In this document: in pieces, positions 9,067 through 63,372 of the stretch
Numbering within the stretch: position 1 is the stretch's first letter
How the letters are laid out: the number at the start of each line of letters is the position of its first letter
Assembly (NCBI RefSeq): GCF_003790525.1
Contig: NZ_CP033635.1
DNA: 64,000 nucleotides
Source of the DNA: Escherichia coli
GTDB lineage: Bacteria > Pseudomonadota > Gammaproteobacteria > Enterobacterales > Enterobacteriaceae
Strand: one strand, 5' to 3'
Position numbers and translations under genes: made by a program
The notes under the pieces: generated by a model
What the model was told of the DNA's origin: nothing
The model's input: the letters and a program-made list of their open reading frames with translations, nothing else
Databases searched by the model: none

Positions 9067-9843
9067 ATGTCCGAAACAAAAAATGAACTTGAAGACCTGC
9101 TGGAAAAAGCAGCAACCGAACCGGCGCACCGCCCGGCCTTTTTCCGTACTCTACTGGAATCCACCGTCTGGGTGCCGGGTACGGCGGCGCAGGGCGAGGC
9201 TGTGGTTGAAGATAGCGCGCTTGATTTACAGCACTGGGAAAAAGAAGACGGCACCAGCGTCATTCCTTTTTTTACCTCGTTAGAAGCACTTCAACAGGCG
9301 GTTGAAGACGAACAGGCATTTGTCGTAATGCCCGTTCGCACATTGTTTGAGATGACCCTTGGCGAAACGCTCTTCCTTAATGCCAAACTGCCAACCGGTA
9401 AAGAATTTATGCCGCGTGAAATCAGTTTGTTGATTGGTGAAGAAGGAAATCCGCTGAGCAGCCAGGAAGTACTGGAGGGCGGTGAATCGCTGATATTATC
9501 GGAAGTCGCAGAGCCACCAGCACAAATGATTGATTCTCTCACCACCTTATTTAAAACTATTAAGCCGGTGAAGCGTGCTTTTATTTGTTCAATTAAAGAG
9601 AACGAAGAGGCACAGCCTAATTTACTTATTGGCATTGAAGCCGATGGTGATATCGAAGAAATTATTCAGGCGGCGGGAAGTGTAGCGACCGATACAATAC
9701 CTGGCGATGAACCCATCGATATTTGTCAGGTGAAAAAAGGGGAAAAAGGAATTAGCCACTTTATTACCGAACATATTGTGCCATTCTATGAACGTCGCTG
9801 GGGTGGTTTTTTGCGTGACTTTAAACAGAACCGGATAATCTAA
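9067..9843 (+). CDS. sseB: SseB, enhancer of serine sensitivity
   Basis: 258 aa from MSETKNELEDLLEKAATEP; convergent with sseA. Confidence 0.85.
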   Translation: MSETKNELEDLLEKAATEPAHRPAFFRTLLESTVWVPGTAAQGEAVVEDSALDLQHWEKEDGTSVIPFFTSLEALQQAVEDEQAFVVMPVRTLFEMTLGETLFLNAKLPTGKEFMPREISLLIGEEGNPLSSQEVLEGGESLILSEVAEPPAQMIDSLTTLFKTIKPVKRAFICSIKENEEAQPNLLIGIEADGDIEEIIQAAGSVATDTIPGDEPIDICQVKKGEKGISHFITEHIVPFYERRWGGFLRDFKQNRII

Positions 9844-9945
9844 AATATGCCGCCCCAAAGGGCGGCATTCGGGCTTACCTGCTGTTCTGAAGGTTGTTAA
9901 CCACCAATAAATTGTTACCGGAGAGACTCCGGTTATTATTTACCT

Positions 9946-10325
9946 CGGTTAACAGCGCACCAGAAACAATAAGTACGATACAAAAGCACCGTATCTTCAT
10001 TGTGCGGTCCATGCGAAGACCGCATCACGACAGCACCACTGGCGATATTGCCGCGATAGCAAGCGCTGTGAAACACCTGCATTTACGGCCATGGAACATC
10101 CTTTCCTTAAGCCAGCGCCCGTTTGCGAGACGGCGGAAAGGGCCGGTGTCGATAATACGCTAAATAAACAATGATTACTCTCTTTCGCTTGACAAAAAGA
10201 GAGTTACTGGCGAGTATTGCTTTGCTGTGAAGCACCTGCGTTGCTCATGCAACACAAGCCAATCTGCTGGAAAGGCCGCGAACCAGACCAGCAATAAAAA
10301 ACCGCCAAATTCGGCGGTTTTTTAT
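9946..10325 (+). ncRNA. Candidate RyfA-like sRNA in the sseB-sseA intergenic region (strand and ends uncertain)
   Basis: About 500 bp non-coding gap between convergent genes; promoter-like TTGTTA-16-TATTAT at 9911-9938; strong hairpin plus T-run at 10300-10330; RyfA is known to lie between sseA and sseB in E. coli. Confidence 0.25.
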
Positions 10326-21868: not shown

Positions 21869-22987
21869 ATGCATAACCAGGCTCCAATTCAACGTAGAAA
21901 ATCAACACGTATTTACGTTGGGAATGTGCCGATTGGCGATGGTGCTCCCATCGCCGTACAGTCCATGACCAATACGCGTACGACAGACGTCGAAGCAACG
22001 GTCAATCAAATCAAGGCGCTGGAACGTGTTGGCGCTGATATCGTCCGTGTCTCCGTACCGACGATGGACGCGGCAGAAGCGTTCAAACTCATCAAACAGC
22101 AGGTTAACGTGCCGCTGGTGGCTGACATCCACTTCGACTATCGCATTGCGCTGAAAGTAGCGGAATACGGCGTCGATTGTCTGCGTATTAACCCTGGCAA
22201 TATCGGTAATGAAGAGCGTATTCGCATGGTGGTTGACTGTGCGCGCGATAAAAACATTCCGATCCGTATTGGCGTTAACGCCGGATCGCTGGAAAAAGAT
22301 CTGCAAGAAAAGTATGGCGAACCGACGCCGCAGGCGTTGCTGGAATCTGCCATGCGTCATGTTGATCATCTCGATCGCCTGAACTTCGAACAGTTCAAAG
22401 TCAGCGTGAAAGCGTCAGACGTCTTCCTCGCTGTTGAGTCTTATCGTTTGCTGGCAAAACAGATCGATCAGCCGCTGCATCTGGGGATCACCGAAGCGGG
22501 TGGTGCGCGCAGCGGGGCGGTTAAATCCGCCATTGGTTTAGGTCTGCTGCTGTCTGAAGGCATCGGCGACACGCTGCGCGTATCGCTGGCGGCCGATCCG
22601 GTCGAAGAGATCAAAGTCGGTTTCGATATTTTGAAATCGCTGCGTATCCGTTCGCGCGGGATCAACTTCATCGCCTGCCCGACCTGTTCGCGTCAGGAAT
22701 TTGATGTTATCGGTACGGTTAACGCGCTGGAGCAACGCCTGGAAGATATCATCACTCCGATGGACGTTTCGATTATCGGCTGCGTGGTGAATGGCCCAGG
22801 TGAGGCGCTGGTTTCTACACTCGGCGTCACCGGCGGCAACAAGAAAAGCGGCCTCTATGAAGATGGCGTGCGCAAAGACCGTCTGGACAACAACGATATG
22901 ATCGATCAGCTGGAAGCGCGCATTCGTGCGAAAGCCAGTCAGCTGGACGAAGCGCGTCGAATTGACGTTCAGCAGGTTGAAAAATAA
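21869..22987 (+). CDS. ispG: HMBPP synthase IspG
   Basis: 372-aa [39 protein letters not shown]. Confidence 0.95.
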
Positions 22988-23097
22988 TAACGTGATGGGA
23001 AGCGCCTCGCTTCCCGTGTATGATTGAACCCGCATGGCTCCCGAAACATTGAGGGAAGCGTTGAGGGTTCATTTTTATATTCAGAAAGAGAATAAAC

Positions 23098-26316: not shown

Positions 26317-27789
26317 ATGGTACCTGTGGTCGCGCTTGTCGGGCGCCCTAACGTAGGAAAATCCACGTTATTTAACCGTCTAACTCGCACCCGAGATGCG
26401 CTGGTTGCGGATTTCCCGGGTCTGACTCGTGACCGTAAGTACGGTCGTGCGGAAATTGAAGGCCGTGAGTTTATCTGCATTGATACCGGCGGGATTGATG
26501 GCACAGAAGACGGTGTAGAAACCCGCATGGCGGAACAGTCGCTGCTGGCGATTGAAGAAGCGGACGTCGTACTGTTTATGGTGGATGCGCGCGCGGGCCT
26601 GATGCCGGCGGATGAAGCGATTGCTAAACATCTGCGCTCCCGTGAAAAACCGACCTTCCTGGTGGCAAACAAAACTGACGGTCTGGATCCCGATCAGGCA
26701 GTGGTTGATTTCTACTCGCTTGGTTTAGGTGAAATCTACCCGATCGCCGCGTCTCACGGTCGTGGCGTATTAAGTCTGCTGGAGCACGTGCTGCTGCCGT
26801 GGATGGAAGATCTCGCACCGCAAGAAGAAGTCGACGAAGACGCCGAATACTGGGCGCAATTTGAAGCGGAAGAGAACGGCGAAGAAGAAGAGGAAGACGA
26901 CTTCGACCCGCAAAGTCTGCCGATCAAACTGGCGATTGTGGGTCGTCCGAACGTCGGTAAGTCTACACTCACTAACCGTATTCTTGGTGAAGAGCGCGTT
27001 GTTGTTTACGACATGCCTGGCACGACGCGTGACAGTATCTACATTCCAATGGAACGCGACGGACGTGAGTATGTGCTCATTGACACCGCTGGCGTACGTA
27101 AACGCGGCAAAATCACCGATGCGGTAGAGAAGTTCTCGGTAATCAAAACGTTGCAGGCCATTGAAGATGCCAACGTGGTGATGTTGGTGATTGATGCGCG
27201 TGAAGGTATTTCCGATCAGGATCTCTCCTTGCTGGGCTTTATTCTCAATAGTGGGCGCTCACTTGTGATTGTAGTGAACAAGTGGGACGGCCTGAGCCAG
27301 GAAGTGAAAGAGCAGGTGAAAGAGACGCTGGACTTCCGTCTGGGCTTTATCGATTTTGCTCGTGTGCACTTTATCTCTGCCTTGCACGGCAGTGGTGTTG
27401 GTAACTTGTTTGAATCAGTACGTGAAGCGTATGACAGCTCCACCCGTCGTGTGGGGACCTCTATGCTGACGCGCATCATGACGATGGCTGTTGAAGATCA
27501 CCAACCGCCGCTGGTACGCGGTCGTCGAGTGAAGCTGAAATATGCCCACGCCGGGGGTTATAACCCGCCGATTGTGGTGATTCACGGTAATCAGGTGAAA
27601 GACCTGCCTGATTCCTACAAGCGTTACCTGATGAACTACTTCCGCAAATCGCTGGACGTAATGGGATCGCCGATTCGTATTCAGTTCAAAGAAGGGGAAA
27701 ACCCGTATGCGAACAAGCGTAATACCCTGACGCCGACTCAGATGCGCAAGCGTAAGCGTCTGATGAAGCACATCAAGAAAAGTAAGTAA
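26317..27789 (+). CDS. der: GTPase Der (EngA)
   Basis: Start at [16 protein letters not shown] (ATG 26317), 490 aa, two GTPase domains (GRPNVGKS twice). Confidence 0.93.
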
Positions 27790-27851
27790 TCACTTATCTG
27801 GTTTCCCTTTCCACACGGAGAGGGAAACCGAATAACACGCGAGGAGTATTT

Positions 27852-28067
27852 ATGGCACTCAACTGTCCAACCTGCAAAACCCCTCTCGAACGCAATGGCG
27901 GGACTGCTCACTGTGCAACTTGTGCCAAAGATTTCACCATTCAGGCTCTTTGTCCTGACTGCCACCAGCCATTGCAGGTATTAAAAGCATGCGGTGCGGT
28001 GGATTATTTCTGCCAATATGGGCACGGTTTAATTTCTAAAACACGCGTTGAATTTGTTATTGTGTAA
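27852..28067 (+). CDS. yfgJ: YfgJ, small zinc-ribbon protein
   Basis: 71-aa ORF with two CxxC pairs (CPTC, CATC, CPDC). Confidence 0.8.
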   Translation: MALNCPTCKTPLERNGGTAHCATCAKDFTIQALCPDCHQPLQVLKACGAVDYFCQYGHGLISKTRVEFVIV

Positions 28068-28276
28068 TATCATTTAAATATATGATTTTATCATTCATAT
28101 TTATAATATGGATGATTATGCCATTTTTGTATTAGTTGAATTACTAATATGAGTGGAAAAAATCACTTATTTAAAAAATAATGATATATTTATCCTTTCT
28201 GGCATGCCTTTCTGAATAATCAGGGATACAATATTAAAGCTTATTTTTGACTTTATCATTGTCACAGGAAAAGTGC

Positions 28277-30451
28277 ATGCTGCGATGGACACGCTGTATT
28301 ATGCTAACATTTATCTCTGGGGCTGCTTTTGCGGCTCCAGAGATAAATGTTGAGCATAAAGAATCATTACCTGATTTAGGTAGTCAGGCCGCACAACAAG
28401 AAGAACAAACCAACAAGGGGAAATCGCTAAAAGAGCGTGGTGCCGATTACGTCATTAACTCCGCTACGCAAGGGTTTGAAAACCTGACACCCGAGGCGCT
28501 GGAGTCCCAGGCCAGAAGCTATCTGCAAAGTCAAATTACCTCTACGACACAATCTTATATTGAGGATACACTCTCCCCCTACGGTAAGGTTCGAACGAAT
28601 CTTTCTCTTGGCCAGGGCGGCGATCTGGATGGCAGTTCCATCGACTATTTTGTTCCCTGGTATGATAATCAAACTACTGTTTATTTCAGCCAATTTTCTG
28701 CACAACGAAAAGAAGATCGTACGATCGGGAATATTGGGCTTGGTGTAAGACATAATTTTGATAAATGGTTGTTGGGTGGAAATATATTTTATGATTATGA
28801 TTTTACCCGTGGGCATCGCCGTTTAGGTTTAGGTGTCGAAGCGTGGACTGATTATTTAAAATTCTCTGGCAACTATTATCACCCGCTTTCTGACTGGAAA
28901 GACTCCGAAGATTTCGATTTTTATGAGGAGCGTCCTGCGCGCGGCTGGGATATTCGCGCCGAAGCCTGGCTTCCCGCTTATCCGCAGCTTGGTGGTAAAA
29001 TTGTTTTCGAACAGTATTACGGTAATGAAGTCGCGCTTTTTGGCACTGATAATCTGGAGAAAGATCCCTTCGCTGTCACGCTGGGTGTGAAATACCAGCC
29101 CGTTCCGCTCATTGCTGTCGGTACAGATTTCAAAGCTGGCACTGGCGATAATACCGATCTTTCTGTTAACGCAACGCTTAATTATCAGTTTGGCGTCCCG
29201 CTCAAAGACCAGCTTGATCCTGACAAAGTGAGCGCTGCTCACTCGCTTATGGGCAGCCGTCATGACTTTGTTGAACGTAACAACTTTATTGTTCTGGAAT
29301 ACAAAGAAAAAGATCCCCTCGACGTCACTTTGTGGCTGAAAGCCGACGCCACGAATGAACATCCCGAGTGCGTGATTAAAGATACGCCTGAAGAAGCTAT
29401 CGGGCTGGAAAAATGTAAATGGACCATTAACGCGCTCATTAACCATCACTACAAAATCGTCGCTGCCTCCTGGCAGGCGAAAAACAATGCTGCACGTACG
29501 CTGGTGATGCCGGTTATCAAAGAAAACACGCTTACCGAAGGTAACAACAACCACTGGAATCTGGTGCTGCCTGCCTGGCAGTACAGTTCTGATAAAGCCG
29601 AACAAGAAAAACTCAATACCTGGCGGGTTCGTCTGGCGCTGGAAGATGAAAAAGGTAATCGACAGAATTCCGGCGTGGTGGAAATCACCGTTCAGCAGGA
29701 TCGCAAAATTGAGCTCATCGTTAACAACATCGCCGATGTACCAGATGAGAACAATCACAGTCATGAAGCCAGCGCACAGGCCGATGGTGTAGATGGTGTG
29801 GTGATGGATCTCGATATTACTGATAGCTTTGGCGACAACACTGACCGCAACGGTAATGTCTTGCCGCAGGATAATCTCAACCCGCAGTTGTTTGACGCCA
29901 ACGATAAAAAAGTGACGCTGACGAATAAACCCTGCACTACCGAGACTCCCTGTGTCTTTATCGCCAAACAAGATAAAGAAAAGGGGACCGTTACGCTCTC
30001 CAGTACATTGCCTGGCACCTTCCGTTGGAAGGCGAAAGCCGCTCCCTATGATGACAGTAACTATGTTGACGTAACGTTCCTGGGTTCTGACATCGGCGGG
30101 CTGAATGCCTTTATCTATCGTGTTGGTGCGGCTAAGCCCGTGAATCTTATCGGCAATAAAGAGCCGTTGCCTCTCAATAGCAGCTATCGCTTTGTGTTGT
30201 GGCGTGACGCTAACAAAGACGGCGTGTTCCAGCTATCAGAGAAATTCACTGAAGAGGAGATGAAACAGTATGACTATCAGTGGGAATTCACGGGACATAG
30301 CGTGAATGGCAATACCGGTGCGCAAGCCAATACCACTAACGCCGATATAGAGATCCCGGCAACGAACAAGGACGCGGCAACGAAGTTTAGTGCCCAGGTA
30401 ACCGATGGCGTGCAGGGATACGGTTTGCAGGTCAATTACAGCAAGAAATAG
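28277..30451 (+). CDS. sinH: Intimin/invasin-like inverse autotransporter (SinH-like)
   Basis: Signal peptide MLRWTRCIMLTFISGAAFA; intimin-type beta-barrel motifs (KWLLGGNIFYDYDF, ERPARGWDIRAEAWLPAYPQLGG); AGGA RBS before ATG 28277. Confidence 0.78.
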   Translation: MLRWTRCIMLTFISGAAFAAPEINVEHKESLPDLGSQAAQQEEQTNKGKSLKERGADYVINSATQGFENLTPEALESQARSYLQSQITSTTQSYIEDTLSPYGKVRTNLSLGQGGDLDGSSIDYFVPWYDNQTTVYFSQFSAQRKEDRTIGNIGLGVRHNFDKWLLGGNIFYDYDFTRGHRRLGLGVEAWTDYLKFSGNYYHPLSDWKDSEDFDFYEERPARGWDIRAEAWLPAYPQLGGKIVFEQYYGNEVALFGTDNLEKDPFAVTLGVKYQPVPLIAVGTDFKAGTGDNTDLSVNATLNYQFGVPLKDQLDPDKVSAAHSLMGSRHDFVERNNFIVLEYKEKDPLDVTLWLKADATNEHPECVIKDTPEEAIGLEKCKWTINALINHHYKIVAASWQAKNNAARTLVMPVIKENTLTEGNNNHWNLVLPAWQYSSDKAEQEKLNTWRVRLALEDEKGNRQNSGVVEITVQQDRKIELIVNNIADVPDENNHSHEASAQADGVDGVVMDLDITDSFGDNTDRNGNVLPQDNLNPQLFDANDKKVTLTNKPCTTETPCVFIAKQDKEKGTVTLSSTLPGTFRWKAKAAPYDDSNYVDVTFLGSDIGGLNAFIYRVGAAKPVNLIGNKEPLPLNSSYRFVLWRDANKDGVFQLSEKFTEEEMKQYDYQWEFTGHSVNGNTGAQANTTNADIEIPATNKDAATKFSAQVTDGVQGYGLQVNYSKK

Positions 30452-49670: not shown

Positions 49671-50255
49671 TTATTGTTTGTTTTTTTCGTTCTGGTTGAT
49701 GACAAATTCAATGTAACTTTCGATCTTTGCTTTCTCGGTTTCGGGTAACAATGCGTAGCGCGAGCGATCATAGTTGATGGTCGCAGGGTCATGCGGATGA
49801 ATCAGTAGTTCATATCCGTGACGCCCGAATGCAGATGCAACATTCTCCAGGGTGGAAATGGAAACGCTGACCTCATTGTTTAACAGGCGGCTTATTGTCA
49901 CCTGGGCGACGCCGGATGCGCGGTGAAGTTTTCCCTGAGTTGAAAGGTCGCGGCTTTCACTCATCCAGCGTTCCAGGTTGTGAGCCGCCAGCTGACCTAT
50001 ATCACTCGGGCCGACAGGCTGAAAACCCTCCTGAGAAAGCGAGCGATCAATATCAAGCCAGTTACGGGGTTTATTGGCGGCAGCTTCAATTTTTCGCGCA
50101 ACCTGGTCGCCGATAACCTTCTTGCCAAGAGCCCAGCGGTTTACCAGATTTGCCTGAGTTCCAAGTTTTTCTGCCATCCGCGTCTGAACACCATTGAATT
50201 CACGGTCGATCAAGTCGTTGAGATTTTGCCTGCGGACGTCCTGGATACTTTTCAT
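49671..50255 (-). CDS. Prophage repressor (two HTH regions)
   Basis: 194-aa ORF divergent from cro-like gene; HTH-like segments QTRMAEKLGTQANLVNRWALGKK and ASGVAQVTISRLLNNE. Confidence 0.55.
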   Translation of the reverse strand: MKSIQDVRRQNLNDLIDREFNGVQTRMAEKLGTQANLVNRWALGKKVIGDQVARKIEAAANKPRNWLDIDRSLSQEGFQPVGPSDIGQLAAHNLERWMSESRDLSTQGKLHRASGVAQVTISRLLNNEVSVSISTLENVASAFGRHGYELLIHPHDPATINYDRSRYALLPETEKAKIESYIEFVINQNEKNKQ

Positions 50256-50310: not shown

Positions 50311-50373
50311 TTACCCAACAGGTAAATGCACCTCATGGGTAACTATCCTTGATTTTTGTTACCTTATGGGTGA
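50311..50373. promoter_or_regulatory. OR-like operator cluster between repressor and cro-like genes
   Basis: TTACCcaacaGGTAA (50311-50325), weak gcACCtcatgGGTAA (50328-50342), TTACCttatgGGTgA (50359-50373); promoter-like TTGTTA-17-TATTAT overlaps. Confidence 0.5.
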
Positions 50374-50409: not shown

Positions 50410-50640
50410 ATGAGCGATAACGGACATTTCGATTTCAAAAAGCACTGGCTTGCACTTACTCCGGATGAGCGTGAAGCCTTCGCACAGGAAGCCGGAACGA
50501 CGAGTCACTATATCCAGACTCACTTAACAGGTAAGCGCAAAATGCCAGGTAAAGTATTGATGAATGGGCTTTTTAAAGCCTGTAAAACAAGACAATGGCT
50601 GCGCTCAAAAGCAGAACTGGCATACTTCTTCTACTCATGA
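50410..50640 (+). CDS. Cro-like early regulator
   Basis: 76-aa ORF divergent from repressor; followed by terminator. Confidence 0.45.
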   Translation: MSDNGHFDFKKHWLALTPDEREAFAQEAGTTSHYIQTHLTGKRKMPGKVLMNGLFKACKTRQWLRSKAELAYFFYS

Positions 50641-50695: not shown

Positions 50696-50710
50696 GTACC
50701 TCAAAGGTAA
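50696..50710. promoter_or_regulatory. Operator-like palindrome gTACCtcaaaGGTAA
   Basis: Motif family member immediately after the cro terminator. Confidence 0.35.
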
Positions 50711-56764: not shown

Positions 56765-56882
56765 CATGTCACGAGTAGATTATGCATGATGAATTTGATG
56801 GGTTTTGAATACTGCCGCCAACTATGGCGGCTTTATTTTGCATGGTACTATTACCACAACGGTAACTATTACCACGGTGGTT

Positions 56883-57479
56883 ATGATGCCTGCTGAACCT
56901 AAAACCTATAAACGCAAATCAACGCAATTTAAGCCGCTCACAGCAATGCAGGAGGCTTATTGCCAGTCATACATCAAAACGCCTGAAAACCAGACTCAGG
57001 CAGCGATTAACGCAGGATTCTCCCCAAATACAGCGGCAGTTAAAGCCAGTGTCATGATGCGCGATGAACGCATTCAAAAACGGATTGCCGAGTTGATGGA
57101 GGAGCGCAACAAACGAATGCGCGTCAGTGCTGATTACGTTCTCATGCGCCTGGTGGAGATCGACCAGATGGACGTGATCGATATCCTCAACGACGATGGG
57201 AGCCTTAAACCAATCCGTGAGTGGCCGAAAATCTGGCGCACTACGCTTAGTGGCTTTGATCTGTCATCGACCATCATGAACATGAACGAGGATTCGATAG
57301 AGACAATCCTCAAAAAAATTAAATGGCCTGACAAGGTGAAGAACCTCGAACTGATTGGTAAGCACGTCGACGTTAACGCGTTCAAAGAACGTCTGGATGT
57401 TAATGTGAATGTGACAATTGCTGATCGCATAGCAGCAGCCAGGAAGCGACTCAAAGAACGTCAGGATGGTAATCAGTGA
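56883..57479 (+). CDS. Terminase small subunit
   Basis: Positioned immediately before terL with GTGA stop/start overlap; start inferred at MMPAEPKTYKRK. Confidence 0.5.
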   Translation: MMPAEPKTYKRKSTQFKPLTAMQEAYCQSYIKTPENQTQAAINAGFSPNTAAVKASVMMRDERIQKRIAELMEERNKRMRVSADYVLMRLVEIDQMDVIDILNDDGSLKPIREWPKIWRTTLSGFDLSSTIMNMNEDSIETILKKIKWPDKVKNLELIGKHVDVNAFKERLDVNVNVTIADRIAAARKRLKERQDGNQ

Positions 57480-58950
57480 CAGATACAGCGTTATCTCCTG
57501 AAGAGCAGTTGATCGAGGATATTGCAGGGTTCACTCACGATCCGCTTGGCTATGCCCTCTATGCGTTCCCGTGGGGGAAGAGGGTACTGAACTGGCACAT
57601 GCCACCGGCCCACGTCAGTGGCAGGCTGATGCGTTCCGAGAGATACGTGATCACCTGCAGAATCCAGAGACGCGCTATCAGCCGCTTATGCTGGCACGCG
57701 CTTCTGGTCACGGTATTGGTAAATCCGCATTCATCTCAATGCTGATCAACTGGGGCATGTCCACTTGCGAGGATTGTAAGGTCGTGGTGACCGCCAACAC
57801 CGACAACCAGCTACGAACTAAGACCTGGCCGGAAATTATCAAGTGGTCGAACCTTGCTATCACGAAAGACTGGTTTACCTGTACCGCTACCGCGATGTAC
57901 AGCAATGATCCTGGGCACGACAAGCGGTGGCGAGCTGACGCAATCCCTTGGTCTGAGCACAACACTGAGGCATTCGCCGGACTACACAACGAGCGTAAAC
58001 GCATCATCGTGGTATTTGATGAAGCGTCGAACATTGCGGATCTGGTGTGGGAAGTTGCCGAGGGTGCGCTAACGGACGAAGACACTGAGATTATCTGGGT
58101 GGCGTTCGGAAACCCTACACGTAACACCGGACGTTTCCGCGAATGTTTCCGCAAATATAAACACCGCTGGAAAACTGCGCAGATTGACAGCCGAACGGTG
58201 GAAGGCACTAACAAACAGCAGTTGCAGAAATGGGTTGATGACTACGGGGAAGACAGCGACTTCGTTAAAATCCGTGTGCGCGGCATATTCCCTGATGCAT
58301 CTGAATTGCAGTTTATCCCTACCGGTCTTACTGATGAGGCAATGAAACGGGTGGTGACCGCTGCGCAGGTGGCGCATGCTCCGGTGATAATCGGTGTTGA
58401 CCCGGCATATTCAGGCGTTGATGACGCGGTGATATACCTGCGGCAGGGGCTACACAGTAAGGTGCTGTGGACTGGCAACAAGACTACCGACGATCTGATT
58501 ATGGCGAAGCGTATCGCTGACTTTGAAGACCAGTATCAGGCTGACGCGGTGTTCATCGACTTCGGTTACGGAACCGGTTTGAAGTCAATCGGTGATGGCT
58601 GGGGACGTACATGGCAACTTGTTCCGTTCGGTGGCGCGTCTACTGACCCGCAGATGCTCAACAAGCGTGGGGAGATGTTCAACTCATGCAAGACATGGCT
58701 GAGGCTCGGCGGCATGCTGGATGACCAGGAAACTGCAGACGACCTGTCGGCGGCAGAGTACAAAGTTCGTGTGGACGGTAAAATCGTTATCGAACCGAAG
58801 GAAGATATCAAAGAGCGGCTTGGGCGTTCGCCTGGTAAAGGCGATGCGCTACTGCTGACGTTTGCTTTCCCGGTGTCAAAGCGCCTGCGACTTCCCGGGC
58901 AGCAGAACCAGCAAGGCAAGGCGCTTACCGAGTACGATCCATATGCTTAG
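57476..58950 (+). CDS. Terminase large subunit, apparently frameshifted in a G5 run (57573-57577)
   Basis: Coupled GTG start 57476 gives 32 codons in one frame; Walker-A (GHGIGKS) body continues in another frame from 57571; adding one G restores a single ORF. Confidence 0.7.
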
Positions 58951-59765
58951 TCTTTATTTTTATCCTCGAAACCTGATAATCCAGATAGAACACCAAAGTT
59001 ATTAAAAACGTTTGGCTTACCAGATTTTAATCCGGATAAGTTGTGTTGCTCCAAAAAGTTACTAATTGTTTGGCCGTTGCCAAGTGCAAGGCTTTTTATT
59101 TGAGATTTTTCAGGGTATTTGAGTTTGTATTCGTCGAAATCATTTTGGAGGGTCTTATATGCCTCATTCATTCTTCCAAGAGTTTCCGATATCTCTTTTA
59201 ATGAATGATTTAGAGCTGCTAACTGAGCACTGGCGGATCTCAATTCGTCATCTTTAGCTTTCAACTCGGCAGTCAATTCACCCATACTATTCTTTGATCG
59301 AATAATCTCTTCTTTCATCTCTTGGATGTCTTTTTCCGCGCCAGTCTTAACTTTGTCGTATGTAACATCTTTTTTAGCCAATAACCTCTGCAGTCTTGTT
59401 TCACGCTGGATTTTTCTTGCCTTCAGGTGATTTTCGATTGAGTCATTATTATCAAGAGGCTTTGCTTGCCATACGTTAATGATATTGTTTACCCATGGTA
59501 ATAGGCAGCAGATAGCAATTACAGATAAGCATGGATAAAACATAACAGTTTTCCATGTGCTGTTATCTGAGATATATGAAATTTTATCTATTATGTTTGA
59601 TTTGCTAAAAAATAGATAAAGAATTGATTTCCAGTTGAAGGCGCACCAGGACATAACAAAAGCACCAAGCACAGGGTTTTTGGCTCGATTCACGGCAGTA
59701 TTGGCAGTAGATAAAAACAGCTCTTTGAACGATTCAAACATGCTAATTACCTTGAAGTTTTTCAT
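58947..59765 (-). CDS. AT-rich moron: membrane protein with coiled-coil C-terminal region
   Basis: Start inferred at MKNFKVISMF; two hydrophobic segments then Lys/Glu-rich heptad-like region; opposite strand to structural genes. Confidence 0.55.
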   Translation of the reverse strand: MKNFKVISMFESFKELFLSTANTAVNRAKNPVLGAFVMSWCAFNWKSILYLFFSKSNIIDKISYISDNSTWKTVMFYPCLSVIAICCLLPWVNNIINVWQAKPLDNNDSIENHLKARKIQRETRLQRLLAKKDVTYDKVKTGAEKDIQEMKEEIIRSKNSMGELTAELKAKDDELRSASAQLAALNHSLKEISETLGRMNEAYKTLQNDFDEYKLKYPEKSQIKSLALGNGQTISNFLEQHNLSGLKSGKPNVFNNFGVLSGLSGFEDKNKD

Positions 59766-59769
59766 GATT

Positions 59770-59784
59770 ATACCTTTAAGGTAA
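59770..59784. promoter_or_regulatory. Operator-like palindrome next to moron start, overlapping a TATAAT element
   Basis: On moron strand reads TTACCttaaaGGTATAATcATG. Confidence 0.4.
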
Positions 59785-59801
59785 TTTGCGGTCATCAAGC
59801 A

Positions 59802-59825
59802 AAAAAATGCCCGGCGAACCGGGCG
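59802..59825 (-). terminator. Intrinsic terminator downstream of phage tRNA
   Basis: Minus strand gcccgg-ttcg-ccgggc followed by attttttt. Confidence 0.5.
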
Positions 59826-59987
59826 AACTGGAAGCAATGAGTTATGCCTTCCGTGGCTGTACGGGTTTACAGCATGAAGTCATCGCAATGGCGTCCTGCT
59901 GTAAAAAGGGCGGTGATAGTCCTTCAAGGGAAACCATCACCGCCAAGCCCCTGGAACTTCTGGCATCACGGTCCTTAGGCGTGATTC

Positions 59988-60064
59988 TGGCGCGGCATGC
60001 AGGATTCGAACCTGCGACCAACCGCTTAGAAGGCGGTTGCTCTGTCCAACTGAGCTAATGCCAC
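59988..60064 (-). tRNA. tRNA-Arg (anticodon UCU), phage-encoded
   Basis: 77-nt cloverleaf folded by hand: acceptor GTGGCAT/ATGCCGC, anticodon loop CTTCTAA, T-loop GCAGG-TTCGAAT-CCTGC, encoded CCA. Confidence 0.85.
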
Positions 60065-60386: not shown

Positions 60387-60401
60387 TTACCTGAAAGGTA
60401 A
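60387..60401. promoter_or_regulatory. Operator-like palindrome TTACCtgaaaGGTAA upstream of head genes
   Basis: Perfect motif family member, followed by TAATAAT. Confidence 0.4.
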
Positions 60402-60701: not shown

Positions 60702-62381
60702 ATGGCGGAAACAACTAAAGAGCGATTGAACAAACAGTTCGCACAACTTGAAAGCGAGCGTCAGTCGTTCGAGCCGCACTGGCGCGAGTTGAGTGATTAC
60801 ATCAACCCGCGTGGTTCCCGCTTTCTGACTTCTGAGGTCAACCGTAACGATCGACGCAATACACGCATTATTGATTCGACCGGGACTATGGCGGCGCGCA
60901 CTCTCGCCAGCGGCATGATGTCAGGCATCACAAGCCCCGCGCGTCCGTGGTTTCGCCTGGCTACGCCAGATCCTGAAATGATGGATTATGGCCCTGTTAA
61001 GTTGTGGCTTGAGGCGGTGCAGAACCGCATGAACGATATGTTCAATAAGTCGAATCTCTACCAGTCTCTTCCGCAGTTATACGGAAGCCTCGGCACATAC
61101 AGCACTGGTGCAATGGCGGTGCTGGAGGATGACGAGGACATCATTCGCACAATGCCATTCCCGATAGGCAGTTACTACCTGGCTAACTCACCTCGTGGCA
61201 GTGTGGACACCTGTTTTCGCAAGTTCTCTATGACTGTTCGTCAGCTTGTTCAGGAGTTCGGGCTAAATAACGTCAGCGAATCCGTAAAAAGCATGTGGGA
61301 AAGCGGCACCTACGAGAAGTGGATTGAAGTGATGCATTCGGTTTACCCGAACATTGACCGCGATACATCGAAGCTGGATAGCAAGAACAAGCCATTCAAA
61401 TCGGTTTATTACGAGGTTGGTGGCGATAACGACAAGTTGTTGCGTGAGTCCGGATTCGATGAGTTTCCAATTATGGCTCCGCGCTGGGAAGTTAACGGCG
61501 AAGATGTTTATGGATCATCATGCCCGGGTATGCTGGCGCTTGGACCTGTTAAGGCATTGCAGCTTCTCCAGAAGCGCAAGTCGCAGTTGATTGATAAAGC
61601 CACCAATCCGCCGATGGTTGCTCCGACTTCCCTCAAGAATCAGCGCGCCTCCCTTCTTCCTGGCGACATAACGTATATCGATCAGATTACTGGTCAGGAT
61701 GGTTTCAGGCCTGCTTATCTGGTTAACCCCAGTACAGCAGATCTGGTAGCAGACATTCAGGACACCCGCCAAATCATTAACAGCGCCTACTTTGTCGATC
61801 TGTTCATGATGTTGCAGAACATCAATACCCGCTCGATGCCTGTTGAAGCGGTGATCGAAATGAAAGAAGAAAAACTTCTGATGTTGGGGCCGGTTCTGGA
61901 GCGTCTGAACGACGAATGTCTTAATCCTCTCATTGACCGCGCTTTCTCGATGATGGTGCGTAAAAACATGCTGCCGCCACCGCCTGACGCGATGGAAGGT
62001 ATGCCCCTGAAGGTCGAATACATTTCTGTCATGGCTCAGGCGCAGAAGTCTATCGGCCTGTCCAGTCTGGCGTCTACGGTCAACTTCATTGGTCAACTTG
62101 CGCAAGCGAAACCAGAAGCTCTCGACAAACTCAATGTTGATCAGGCGATCGATGCATTCGCTGATATGTCCGGAGTGTCTCCAACCGTCATTGTTCCGCA
62201 GGAACAGGTTGAGCAGGCTCGCCAGCAACGGGCACAGCAGCAACAGCAGCAACAAATGATGGCGATGGGAATGGCGGCGGCACAGGGCGCCAAGACGCTA
62301 AGCGAAGCTAAAACTTCGGATCCGAGTGTTTTGTCAGCTATGGCGAATGCAGTTAGTGGTCAGGGTGGGCAATCACAATGA
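60702..62381 (+). CDS. Portal (head-tail connector) protein
   Basis: 559-aa ORF after terminase; Gln/Ala/Met-rich C-terminal tail reminiscent of podovirus connectors. Confidence 0.65.
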   Translation: MAETTKERLNKQFAQLESERQSFEPHWRELSDYINPRGSRFLTSEVNRNDRRNTRIIDSTGTMAARTLASGMMSGITSPARPWFRLATPDPEMMDYGPVKLWLEAVQNRMNDMFNKSNLYQSLPQLYGSLGTYSTGAMAVLEDDEDIIRTMPFPIGSYYLANSPRGSVDTCFRKFSMTVRQLVQEFGLNNVSESVKSMWESGTYEKWIEVMHSVYPNIDRDTSKLDSKNKPFKSVYYEVGGDNDKLLRESGFDEFPIMAPRWEVNGEDVYGSSCPGMLALGPVKALQLLQKRKSQLIDKATNPPMVAPTSLKNQRASLLPGDITYIDQITGQDGFRPAYLVNPSTADLVADIQDTRQIINSAYFVDLFMMLQNINTRSMPVEAVIEMKEEKLLMLGPVLERLNDECLNPLIDRAFSMMVRKNMLPPPPDAMEGMPLKVEYISVMAQAQKSIGLSSLASTVNFIGQLAQAKPEALDKLNVDQAIDAFADMSGVSPTVIVPQEQVEQARQQRAQQQQQQQMMAMGMAAAQGAKTLSEAKTSDPSVLSAMANAVSGQGGQSQ

Positions 62382-62674
62382 CAGATTACGAAGATGATCA
62401 ACTGAAAGAAGAAAACGCCCGTAAGCAACGTGACATGGCACAGCGTGAAATTGATGACATTCGCTTTGTCATGAGCAGTGAACAGGGGCGTCGCGTTGTC
62501 TGGTCGGTGCTGGAGAAAGGCCGTGTGTTTTCCGCTATCTCACCGATGGACGCTATGGCAATGGCATTTAATGAGGGGCAACGCAATCTGGCGCTGGAAC
62601 TGTTTCAGCGCGTTATGGCGCATTGCCCTGAACAGTATTTGAAGATGGCCAAAGAGGCCAGTGAACAGGAGTGA
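62378..62674 (+). CDS. Hypothetical head-assembly protein
   Basis: 98-aa ORF overlapping stop of portal gene. Confidence 0.35.
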   Translation: MTDYEDDQLKEENARKQRDMAQREIDDIRFVMSSEQGRRVVWSVLEKGRVFSAISPMDAMAMAFNEGQRNLALELFQRVMAHCPEQYLKMAKEASEQE

Positions 62675-63372
62675 TCATGAATTTATTTGAGCGTTTGCTG
62701 TATCGCCGTCTTTGCAATGAGCAACCAGTCGATGGTGGAGCAGCTCCGGCTGCGTCAGAACCGTCAGCGCCTGCAGGTGATAACCCTGCTCCAGTTGGTG
62801 ATCCATCACAACCGGAAGGTGATAAGCCACAACCTGTTGCTGATGGCGATAAACCTGCTGATGACAAAAAGCCTGAAAACGATAAGCAGGATGAAAAAAA
62901 GGACGGCGATAAACCAGAGGGTGCGCCTGAGAAGTACGAGTTTCAGGCTGCCGAAGGCGTAGAGCTGGATACAGAAGCGTTGAAGGAATTCGAGCCGGTG
63001 GCGCGAGAACTAAACCTGACCAACGAGCAAGCGCAAAAGCTGGTTGATGCTTATCCGAAGATTCTGGCAGGTGTTCAGCAGCGCCAGGCAGAAGCCTGGC
63101 AGAAAACAACCGAGCAGTGGGCTACGGATGTAAAAGCTGACAAAGAAATCGGTGGCGACAAGTTGATTTCTAACCTTAGCGCCGCACAGCGTGCGCTTGA
63201 CCAGTTCGGGACACCTGAACTCAAAGAATATCTGAACACCACCGGGCTGGGTAATCACCCTGATCTGGTCAAAACGTTCGTGAAAATCGGAAAGGCGATG
63301 TCTGAAGATGGCATGGTCACCGGTGGTAATGAAGGCCAGCGTAGTGCGGCCGAAGTGCTCTATGGCAAATAA
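62671..63372 (+). CDS. Scaffolding protein (putative)
   Basis: 233-aa acidic Pro/Ala/Asp-rich N-terminus then helical region; between portal and capsid. Confidence 0.45.
   Translation: MIMNLFERLLYRRLCNEQPVDGGAAPAASEPSAPAGDNPAPVGDPSQPEGDKPQPVADGDKPADDKKPENDKQDEKKDGDKPEGAPEKYEFQAAEGVELDTEALKEFEPVARELNLTNEQAQKLVDAYPKILAGVQQRQAEAWQKTTEQWATDVKADKEIGGDKLISNLSAAQRALDQFGTPELKEYLNTTGLGNHPDLVKTFVKIGKAMSEDGMVTGGNEGQRSAAEVLYGK

Follow-up and report, generated by a model that had tools for sequence, protein, structure and literature searches.

A counter-oriented gene for a predicted membrane/coiled-coil protein is the cargo of an accessory cassette in an epsilon15/phiV10-like prophage of Escherichia coli

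The right-hand third of the 64,000-nt stretch of Escherichia coli DNA analysed here (contig NZ_CP033635.1 of assembly GCF_003790525.1; hereafter the window) is an epsilon15/phiV10-like (Uetakevirus-type) prophage integrated beside guaA. The interval between its terL and portal genes holds a reverse-strand open reading frame (ORF), a reverse-strand tRNA-Arg(UCU), and two reverse-strand intrinsic terminators (Table 1). The ORF, which the original prediction, made from the sequence alone, had described as an AT-rich, lysogen-expressed moron for a membrane/coiled-coil protein, is the subject of this work. It is indeed present, and its TAA stop (58947-58949) overlaps the TAG stop of terL. Within the window, no other protein gene of the late region has this orientation; the stronger statement, that it is the only reverse-strand gene there, fails because the tRNA gene lies on the same strand.

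The start codon had to be moved. A mechanical list of ORFs opens the frame (58947-59837) at a TTG, which had been adopted as the start; this codon is placed inside the second terminator (59824-59809 and its T-run) of the conserved tRNA module. On an identical sequence in E. coli 20AR0300, the Prokaryotic Genome Annotation Pipeline (PGAP) calls a 272-residue protein, WP_000787773.1, from the ATG at 59765. In 31 of 31 aligned homologues, however, translation starts eight codons further in, at the position equivalent to ATG 59741, and the start of the PHROG 4780 profile coincides with the same codon. Because of these agreements, and because the distance from the promoter to this ATG is kept among family members, the coding sequence most likely begins at 59741 and encodes 264 residues, which are numbered accordingly below. 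The eight additional codons of the PGAP call are absent from all other alleles, in which the leader reads CAGAAAAAAC where CATGAAAAAC is found here.

The gene has a G+C content of 0.365 (0.362 at third codon positions), compared with 0.47-0.54 for terS, terL, and the portal gene, and no 800-nt window elsewhere in the 64 kb has a lower value (mean 0.519, standard deviation 0.037); it lies about 4 standard deviations under the mean, and the AT-richness noted at the outset is thus borne out. A second low-GC patch, with values of 0.38-0.41 in 800-nt windows, lies in the chromosomal part of the window at 27600-28900. Matches to the Rfam models of the iscRS stability element, ryfA, and sroE (2477-2586, 9842-10146, and 22987-23078) identify the left part of the window as E. 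coli core chromosome.

phiV10 and its relatives share DNA with the window only from 59801 rightwards and hold different genes in the slot, in line with the proposal that the gene was acquired separately. By this comparison, the gene is the cargo of a mobile accessory cassette of 854 bp, extending from 58947 to 59800. Different cargo between common flanks, deviant composition, and a predicted promoter of its own mark it, as far as sequence can tell, as a moron, the 'more DNA' type of element described by Hendrix; of the own terminator that is a further mark of morons, no reverse-strand example was found downstream of the gene (58700-58947 searched).

Table 1. Positions of the accessory gene, its predicted protein segments and control elements, and neighbouring features of the prophage
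Feature	Position	Strand	Basis or remark
Coding sequence of the 264-residue membrane/coiled-coil protein	58947-59741	-	ORF list; start by homologues, PHROG 4780, and promoter distance
N-terminal extension MKNFKVIS, 8 codons	59742-59765	-	PGAP call only; probably untranslated leader
Hydrophobic segment 1, residues 22-46, with near-invariant FNW motif	59604-59678	-	hydropathy, AlphaFold2
Hydrophobic segment 2, residues 63-91, continuous with coiled-coil helix	59469-59555	-	Kyte-Doolittle up to 2.15
Conserved juxtamembrane basic coiled-coil stem, residues ~92-161	59258-59468	-	many invariant residues
Hypervariable C-terminal coiled coil and tail, residues ~162-264, swapped between alleles	58950-59257	-	alignment, genome matches
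Sigma-70-type promoter: -35 ATGACC (59795-59790), 17-nt spacer, -10 TATAAT (59772-59767)	59767-59795	-	10/12 match
Shine-Dalgarno sequence AAGG	59750-59753	-	8 nt 5' of ATG 59741; read from sequence
Operator-like palindrome ATTACCTTAAAGGTATA, core TACC-N5-GGTA	59769-59785	.	in promoter spacer, overlapping -10
Intrinsic terminator 2, GCCCGGTTCGCCGGGC (59824-59809) and T-run	59801-59824	-	ends upstream tRNA module; right-hand cassette boundary
Intrinsic terminator 1, tRNA side	59944-59909	-	
tRNA-Arg(UCU)	59988-60064	-	ARAGORN and Rfam; conserved neighbour of slot, immediately upstream of the accessory gene
terS	56805-57479	+	
terL	57476-58950	+	TAG stop 58948-58950
Portal gene	60702-62381	+	
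Repressor-like gene	49671-50255	-	
Cro-like gene	50410-50640		divergent from repressor-like gene

The slot itself was sampled in 64 IMG/VR contigs that share the tRNA-side terminator and terL, taking as the slot the equivalent of window positions 58951-59800. Twelve of them carry a member of the gene family described below, 21 a phiV10p03-like gene, and 31 other cargo of at least ten further kinds, in every case on the reverse strand. phiV10 itself has an unrelated 123-residue reverse gene at this place, and the 201-residue gene in the slot of EC.W1-9 is again a family member (hhalign probability 99.9%). Family members with identities of 29-100% occupy the same slot, also in other hosts. Two of the other kinds of cargo encode proteins with a Thoeris anti-defense 2 (Tad2)-like domain (E = 2e-25 and 7e-22). 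The non-family cargos have no promoter of their own and begin, with a ribosome-binding site, right at the end of the terminator T-run; among slot cargos, only the family gene brings its promoter along. These comparisons identify the terL/tRNA-Arg slot as a diversity hotspot of epsilon15/phiV10-like prophages and, to our knowledge, it has not been described before as an anti-phage hotspot. The adjoining tRNA decodes AGA, a codon that accounts for 4 of the 8 arginine codons of the accessory gene and for none in terS, terL, the portal gene, the gene at 62671-63372, and the repressor gene; it may serve as a helper of hotspot cargo. On the other side of the slot, terL has lost one nucleotide from a G-run (GGGGGG to GGGGG, 57568-57572) relative to the intact 1476-nt gene of NZ_CP195498 and to that of phiV10. 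The resulting frameshift at about codon 33 means that either the prophage is packaging-defective or the homopolymer was mis-sequenced.

The protein matches PHROG 4780, a family of unknown function, over its full length (E = 3e-137; residues 9-272 of the PGAP protein aligned to positions 1-267 of 275), and this is the only family with which it could be connected; in agreement with the original prediction, which recognised none, no family of known function was found. A collection clustered at 90% identity yielded 177 homologues, all labelled 'hypothetical' or with a generic or spurious domain name. A profile search of 1.84 billion representative sequences retrieved 305 clusters at 50% identity with E <= 1e-10, and 1764 with E <= 1e-3; nearly all of the proteins comprise 200-400 residues with the conserved domain at the N-terminus. 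Among the AFDB50 matches are proteins of Yersinia, Providencia, Marinomonas, Idiomarina, roseobacters, Flavobacterium, and Desulfomicrobium; almost every entry is labelled uncharacterised, and the few names are generic. Profile comparison thus places the protein in a large uncharacterised family comprising PHROG 4780 and its relatives. Compared with a 91%-identical allele, codons 1-160 contain 23 synonymous and 10 non-synonymous codon differences, and this synonymous excess, taken with the homologues and clusters just listed, identifies the gene as real and under constraint.

None of the searches connected the family with a function. Pfam, searched with the protein itself and with 36 diverse members, covered the N-terminal domain in none of the 36 and gave coiled-coil noise only, as did NCBIfam and a sequence-profile search of the PDB. 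Searching AFDB50 by fold returned uncharacterised family members only, and BFVD, searched with the high-confidence N-terminal model, returned nothing at E < 0.8. In PADLOC-DB 2.0, the best matches (DndD, PbeC, LmuB, JetC, and PD-Lambda-1) have E >= 2e-5 and fall within the helical/coiled-coil part, residues 92-260, none covering the N-terminal transmembrane (TM) domain. In the literature, the accession and the PHROG identifiers go unmentioned.

The position of a membrane anchor with a coiled coil between packaging and head genes could suggest an accessory protein of lysis, assembly, or the virion, such as a holin, a spanin, or a scaffold-like protein, and weak matches to tape-measure and head PHROGs point the same way. 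None of these matches extends beyond the coiled coil or has an E value better than 0.004, and no lysis family of PHROG or Pfam was matched. The gene is moreover not part of a lysis cassette. It lies between terL and the tRNA gene opposite to the late operon, deviates from it in composition, and is absent from most epsilon15-like phages, only about 19% of the sampled slots carrying it; the portal, protease, and capsid genes are annotated elsewhere in related genomes. We consider such a role highly improbable.

The predicted protein has the architecture that had been proposed: two hydrophobic helices are followed by a Lys/Glu-rich helix with heptad periodicity up to about residue 205 and by a low-complexity tail. 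In an alignment of 145 sequences, Asn36 and Trp37 are 99% conserved, and Arg19, Pro23, Gly26, Trp32, Asn36, Trp37, Pro70, and Pro82 are all conserved to at least 90%. An AlphaFold2 model of residues 1-170, computed from the family alignment, has a mean predicted local distance difference test (pLDDT) score of 86.7 and places helices at residues 2-20, 23-35, 37-45 (with a kink at Asn36), 50-60, and 63-169. The N-terminal helix is amphipathic, and a short acidic loop separates the hydrophobic helices. In the model, the second hydrophobic segment runs directly into the coiled coil as one helix, residues 63-169, with pLDDT values of 83-97. Ten lysine and arginine residues lie between residues 92 and 130. 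Family-wide charge counts are +0.7 for the N-terminal flank, −0.95 for the inter-helix loop, and +1.0 and +1.7 for the C-terminal flanks, from which, by the positive-inside rule, both termini are probably cytoplasmic. The protein would then be an inner-membrane protein with a coiled coil of about 100 residues that probably faces the cytoplasm and that may be oligomeric.

Conservation ends within the coiled coil. Up to residue 124, the protein is almost the same as that of the 91%-identical allele; beyond about residue 165, the two are unrelated. The matches to E. coli genomes break at query position 308, equivalent to window position 59258. Whereas this allele occurs in 36 of 5426 complete E. 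coli genomes, some 18 more have the promoter and the first ~161 codons in common at 90-92% DNA identity, followed by a different 3' end. By these alignments, residues 1-160 are conserved and the remainder is swapped between alleles.

Carriers of the gene include clinical, animal, and environmental E. coli. Together with the presence of a single AT-rich gene with its own promoter, intact in a prophage whose terL appears frameshifted, this distribution could fit a lysogenic-conversion factor unrelated to phages, acting in envelope physiology, stress tolerance, or virulence. The predicted protein, however, has neither a signal peptide nor an exposed domain, its predicted periplasmic loop comprises about 16 residues, and both the hypervariability of the cytoplasmic tail and the location in phage hotspots are more in keeping with conflict. 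For a lysogen of a related Uetakevirus, no phenotype was seen in growth, biofilm, stress, or virulence (PMC9782041), although that phage lacks this gene. A conversion role of this kind appears improbable.

The promoter is the best sigma-70-like site of the region. Score alone does not distinguish it from chance (5 sites against an expectation of 3.0 from shuffled sequences), and the case for it therefore rests on conservation. From 74 loci with family members, we obtained 38 distinct upstream sequences, and 37 of these display a -35 element with a TGAC core, a spacer of exactly 17 nt, and a TAnnnT -10 element. In 35 of the 37 promoter-carrying sequences, the end of the -10 element lies 25-26 nt before the ATG (25 nt here), and an AAGGG or ATGGG counterpart of the Shine-Dalgarno sequence is found in the other alleles within an A-rich leader. 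The gene thus has a predicted promoter of its own. A TATAAT overlapping a palindrome had been recognised before, at a supposed 4 nt from the ATG, and had been taken to indicate a near-leaderless transcript. The hexamer and its overlap with the palindrome are confirmed; the ATG concerned, at 59765, lies only 1 nt past the hexamer, upstream of any plausible transcription start. Because the geometry between the -10 element and ATG 59741 is conserved among alleles, the transcript should have a normal short leader, and we reject the leaderless variant. In this allele only, a 16-nt inverted repeat with 88% complementarity (59742-59757 and 59774-59789) would allow the left half of the operator-like palindrome to pair with the Shine-Dalgarno region; it would form only in transcripts reading through from the tRNA side, where it would sequester the ribosome-binding site.

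The palindrome in the promoter spacer belongs to a set of similar sites. The motif TACCT-N3-AGGTA occurs 5 times in the window, always in the prophage part, and a looser 16-mer palindrome search gave 9 matches where 0.35 were expected. The 17-mer of the cassette, ATTACCTTAAAGGTATA, is of the TTACC-N5-GGTAA type and has an identical copy upstream of int (44516). Two relaxed TACC-N5-GGTA sites, 49538 and 49600, closely follow the 3' end of the repressor-like gene, and a site at 50312 with two degenerate copies (~50333 and ~50358) lies in the 154-bp gap between the repressor-like and Cro-like genes, an arrangement that resembles the classic OL/OR layout. Further copies are located at 50697, 52599, 52661, 56852 (inside terS), and 60388, so that palindromes precede int, a DUF1064 gene, the accessory gene, and, at 60388, the small gene before the portal gene. 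This distribution suggests that a single repressor/Cro pair governs numerous promoters throughout the prophage. In phage ZX5, the homologous repressor has been shown to block the lytic cycle, though its operators were not mapped (PMC9782041). From the shared sites we infer that the promoter of the accessory gene is bound by the resident repressor, its Cro, or both; the function of the gene is likewise a matter of inference from its context.

The core palindrome is retained in 33 of the 38 distinct family promoters, and prophages whose repressors are only 45% identical carry the same half-sites around the repressor gene. The palindrome is decayed in KO-TP1, a lambdoid phage of Klebsiella; a Klebsiella prophage (L008) has it intact in the promoter, though the cI-cro operators there belong to another type. 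Repressor control is for these two reasons not universal, and the palindrome gives the impression of an ancestral feature of the cassette and not of a site that functions in every carrier. Since both immunity types use TTACC/GGTAA half-sites, the class-B promoter site being only the weaker CTACC-N5-GGTAT, co-variation between cassette operator and immunity type, though suggestive, is not claimed.

An operator-like site in the promoter spacer makes the expression in lysogens assumed in the original prediction doubtful. The gene may be silent in lysogens, if the repressor occupies the site, or it may be active in lysogens and turned off during the lytic cycle, if Cro does. The latter option would avoid a head-on collision with late transcription, because no terminator separates the gene from terL. 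The former is the basis of the main alternative explanation, that of an early lytic accessory factor made only upon infection or induction, when repressor is absent, and benefiting its own phage, for instance through neutralisation of a membrane-based host defence, exclusion of a secondary phage in the lytic cycle, or remodelling of the envelope. One of the OR copies lies in the spacer of the PR-like promoter, the same arrangement as over the -10 element of the cassette promoter, whose 17-mer recurs upstream of int, and sites of this class flank the repressor gene in two immunity types. Tad2-like anti-defence genes in the slot of related phages would suit such a factor, and hypervariability of the C-terminus is likewise compatible with an arms race against defences of the host. 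The non-universal repressor control described above speaks against it, as does the distribution of the family, to which we now turn; overall, we rate an early lytic role as rather unlikely.

In podovirus-like and lambdoid prophages of Klebsiella, the family gene is found in counter-orientation in the nin/replication region with the same promoter. In a P2-like prophage, gpA and the portal gene flank a Pantoea member, P0191, of 514 residues; this gpA-gpQ locus of P2 is a validated anti-phage hotspot that holds old and tin (Rousset et al. 2022, PMC9122126). In the same Pantoea prophage (positions 1-1355 of locus L087), a NACHT/STAND-type gene directly adjoins the CI-type repressor gene. A Ketobacter member follows an AIPR gene matching the AbiU model of PADLOC (E = 4e-31) amid transposase genes; a second gene adjacent to AIPR was considered as a family member and rejected. 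A metagenomic member is found downstream of an S24 repressor gene on the same strand, two genes upstream of a TIR-domain gene, and one member has no mobile-element context. Family members were always solitary in the loci inspected, and no gene recurs beside them: the downstream neighbours in Ketobacter and in a metagenomic prophage are related neither to each other nor to the family. Relatives occur in only 5 of 50,697 deposited phage genomes, always annotated as hypothetical. For an early lytic factor, this scarcity is unexpected, as are the members outside recognisable phages, beside an AbiU-like gene and transposases, and the one that follows a repressor gene on the same strand, a position typical of lysogen-expressed genes.

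A solitary gene with its own promoter, small high-turnover slots in several prophage types, defence-type neighbours, and a conserved membrane module joined to an exchanged coiled coil together point to a role in conflicts of phages with one another or with their hosts. From this context, notably the P2 gpA-gpQ hotspot and the AbiU-like and TIR neighbours, the originally proposed superinfection exclusion or abortive infection is plausible. We therefore favour, as a tentative reading that stands somewhat short of probable, a membrane-anchored exclusion or abortive-infection protein to which the variable coiled coil supplies specificity. In such a protein, the conserved N-terminal 160 residues would be a membrane-acting or anchoring module, and the swapped C-terminal coiled coil a specificity module that recognises a variable partner on the cytoplasmic face, for example a protein or the ejection conduit of an incoming phage. 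Engagement would then either block genome entry (exclusion) or perturb the membrane (abortive infection). Transcription would proceed from the sigma-70 promoter of the cassette, with a leader of about 19 nt and the operator of the resident repressor/Cro pair inside the promoter, and expression would thereby be coupled to the phage switch, with silencing either in the lysogen or while the prophage itself grows lytically.

Several points weigh against an exclusion or abortive-infection protein. Injection blockers of the classical kind are generally considered to act at the envelope, and the variable part is predicted, by the positive-inside rule, to be cytoplasmic. The operator may imply repression in the lysogen, the state in which a defence gene would be expected to be active. 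No homology to characterised exclusion or defence proteins was detected in PADLOC, NCBIfam, or Pfam, or by hhalign against P22 SieA and SieB (probabilities below 1%). The P2 gpA-gpQ hotspot also holds cargo unrelated to defence (PMC9122126). Finally, Tad2-like anti-defence genes occupy this slot in sister phages, which keeps a counter-defence role in contention.

A broader version of the exclusion or abortive-infection reading would see in the family a new class of solitary membrane-anchored phage sensors/effectors, in which the two-helix FNW module is joined by one continuous helix to an exchangeable cytoplasmic coiled coil that detects rival-phage proteins and sets off exclusion or abortive infection; in the epsilon15-like group, the CI/Cro operator would silence the gene during the phage's own lytic growth and so provide self-immunity. 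We regard this extension as speculative and on the unlikely side.

What is established by the comparisons is a real, well-delimited accessory cassette and a sound candidate for experiment rather than a surprise. The original description proved largely right; its start codon and leader were wrong, and expression in lysogens is doubtful. If a role in conflict is true, the family would be a widespread single-gene membrane system with some 300 clusters at 50% identity across phyla, extending from Enterobacteriaceae to roseobacters and Flavobacteria, and its module boundaries are sharp enough to permit swaps of specificity. In Uetakevirus-like prophages, the terL/tRNA-Arg slot would be a small, anchor-defined hotspot with candidate defence and anti-defence (Tad2-like) cargo, useful for mining, and the operator in the cassette promoter an example of accessory cargo wired into the genetic switch of the resident phage. 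If there is no such role, the protein is one more hypothetical prophage membrane protein.

Among known systems, P22 SieA (PMC10883804) is comparable in several respects: it, too, is encoded by a single prophage gene opposite to flanking virion genes, with its own promoter, an inner-membrane product, and highly divergent alleles. SieA differs in comprising 162-164 residues with three TM helices and no coiled coil, compared with 264 residues, two hydrophobic helices, and a coiled coil here, in its motif FxRYPxEAxxFNK, and in the location of its gene between genes 16 and 9 of P22-like phages; membership of its family was rejected (hhalign probability against the family profile 0.3%). SieB of P22 and lambda, which confers exclusion of the abortive-infection type, is likewise a single prophage protein with its own promoter and acts against other phages. 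It was also rejected as a relative, there being no match to the Pfam family PF14163 and an hhalign probability of 0.2% against P22 SieB. SieB has an internal start, Esc, for self-immunity; no such feature was seen in the present gene, although no search was aimed at one. Two-TM effector modules, such as SLATT proteins and the 2TM effectors of retrons or CBASS, consist of two N-terminal TM helices and a cytoplasmic helical region, are presumed to act on the membrane, and work with a partner enzyme. The predicted layout of the present protein is the same, but its gene is always solitary, with no conserved neighbour, and no Pfam match to SLATT/DUF4231 was obtained in the 36 diverse members. The cargos of the P2 gpA-gpQ and P4 hotspots (PMC9122126) share with it residence in a small high-turnover locus between two conserved phage genes, and P0191 lies in exactly the P2 locus, although the family is not among the validated systems in PADLOC. 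The Tad2-like (DUF2829) anti-Thoeris proteins, in contrast, are soluble, unrelated in sequence, and encoded without a promoter of their own, but they occupy the same terL/tRNA slot in sister phages as the gene studied here.

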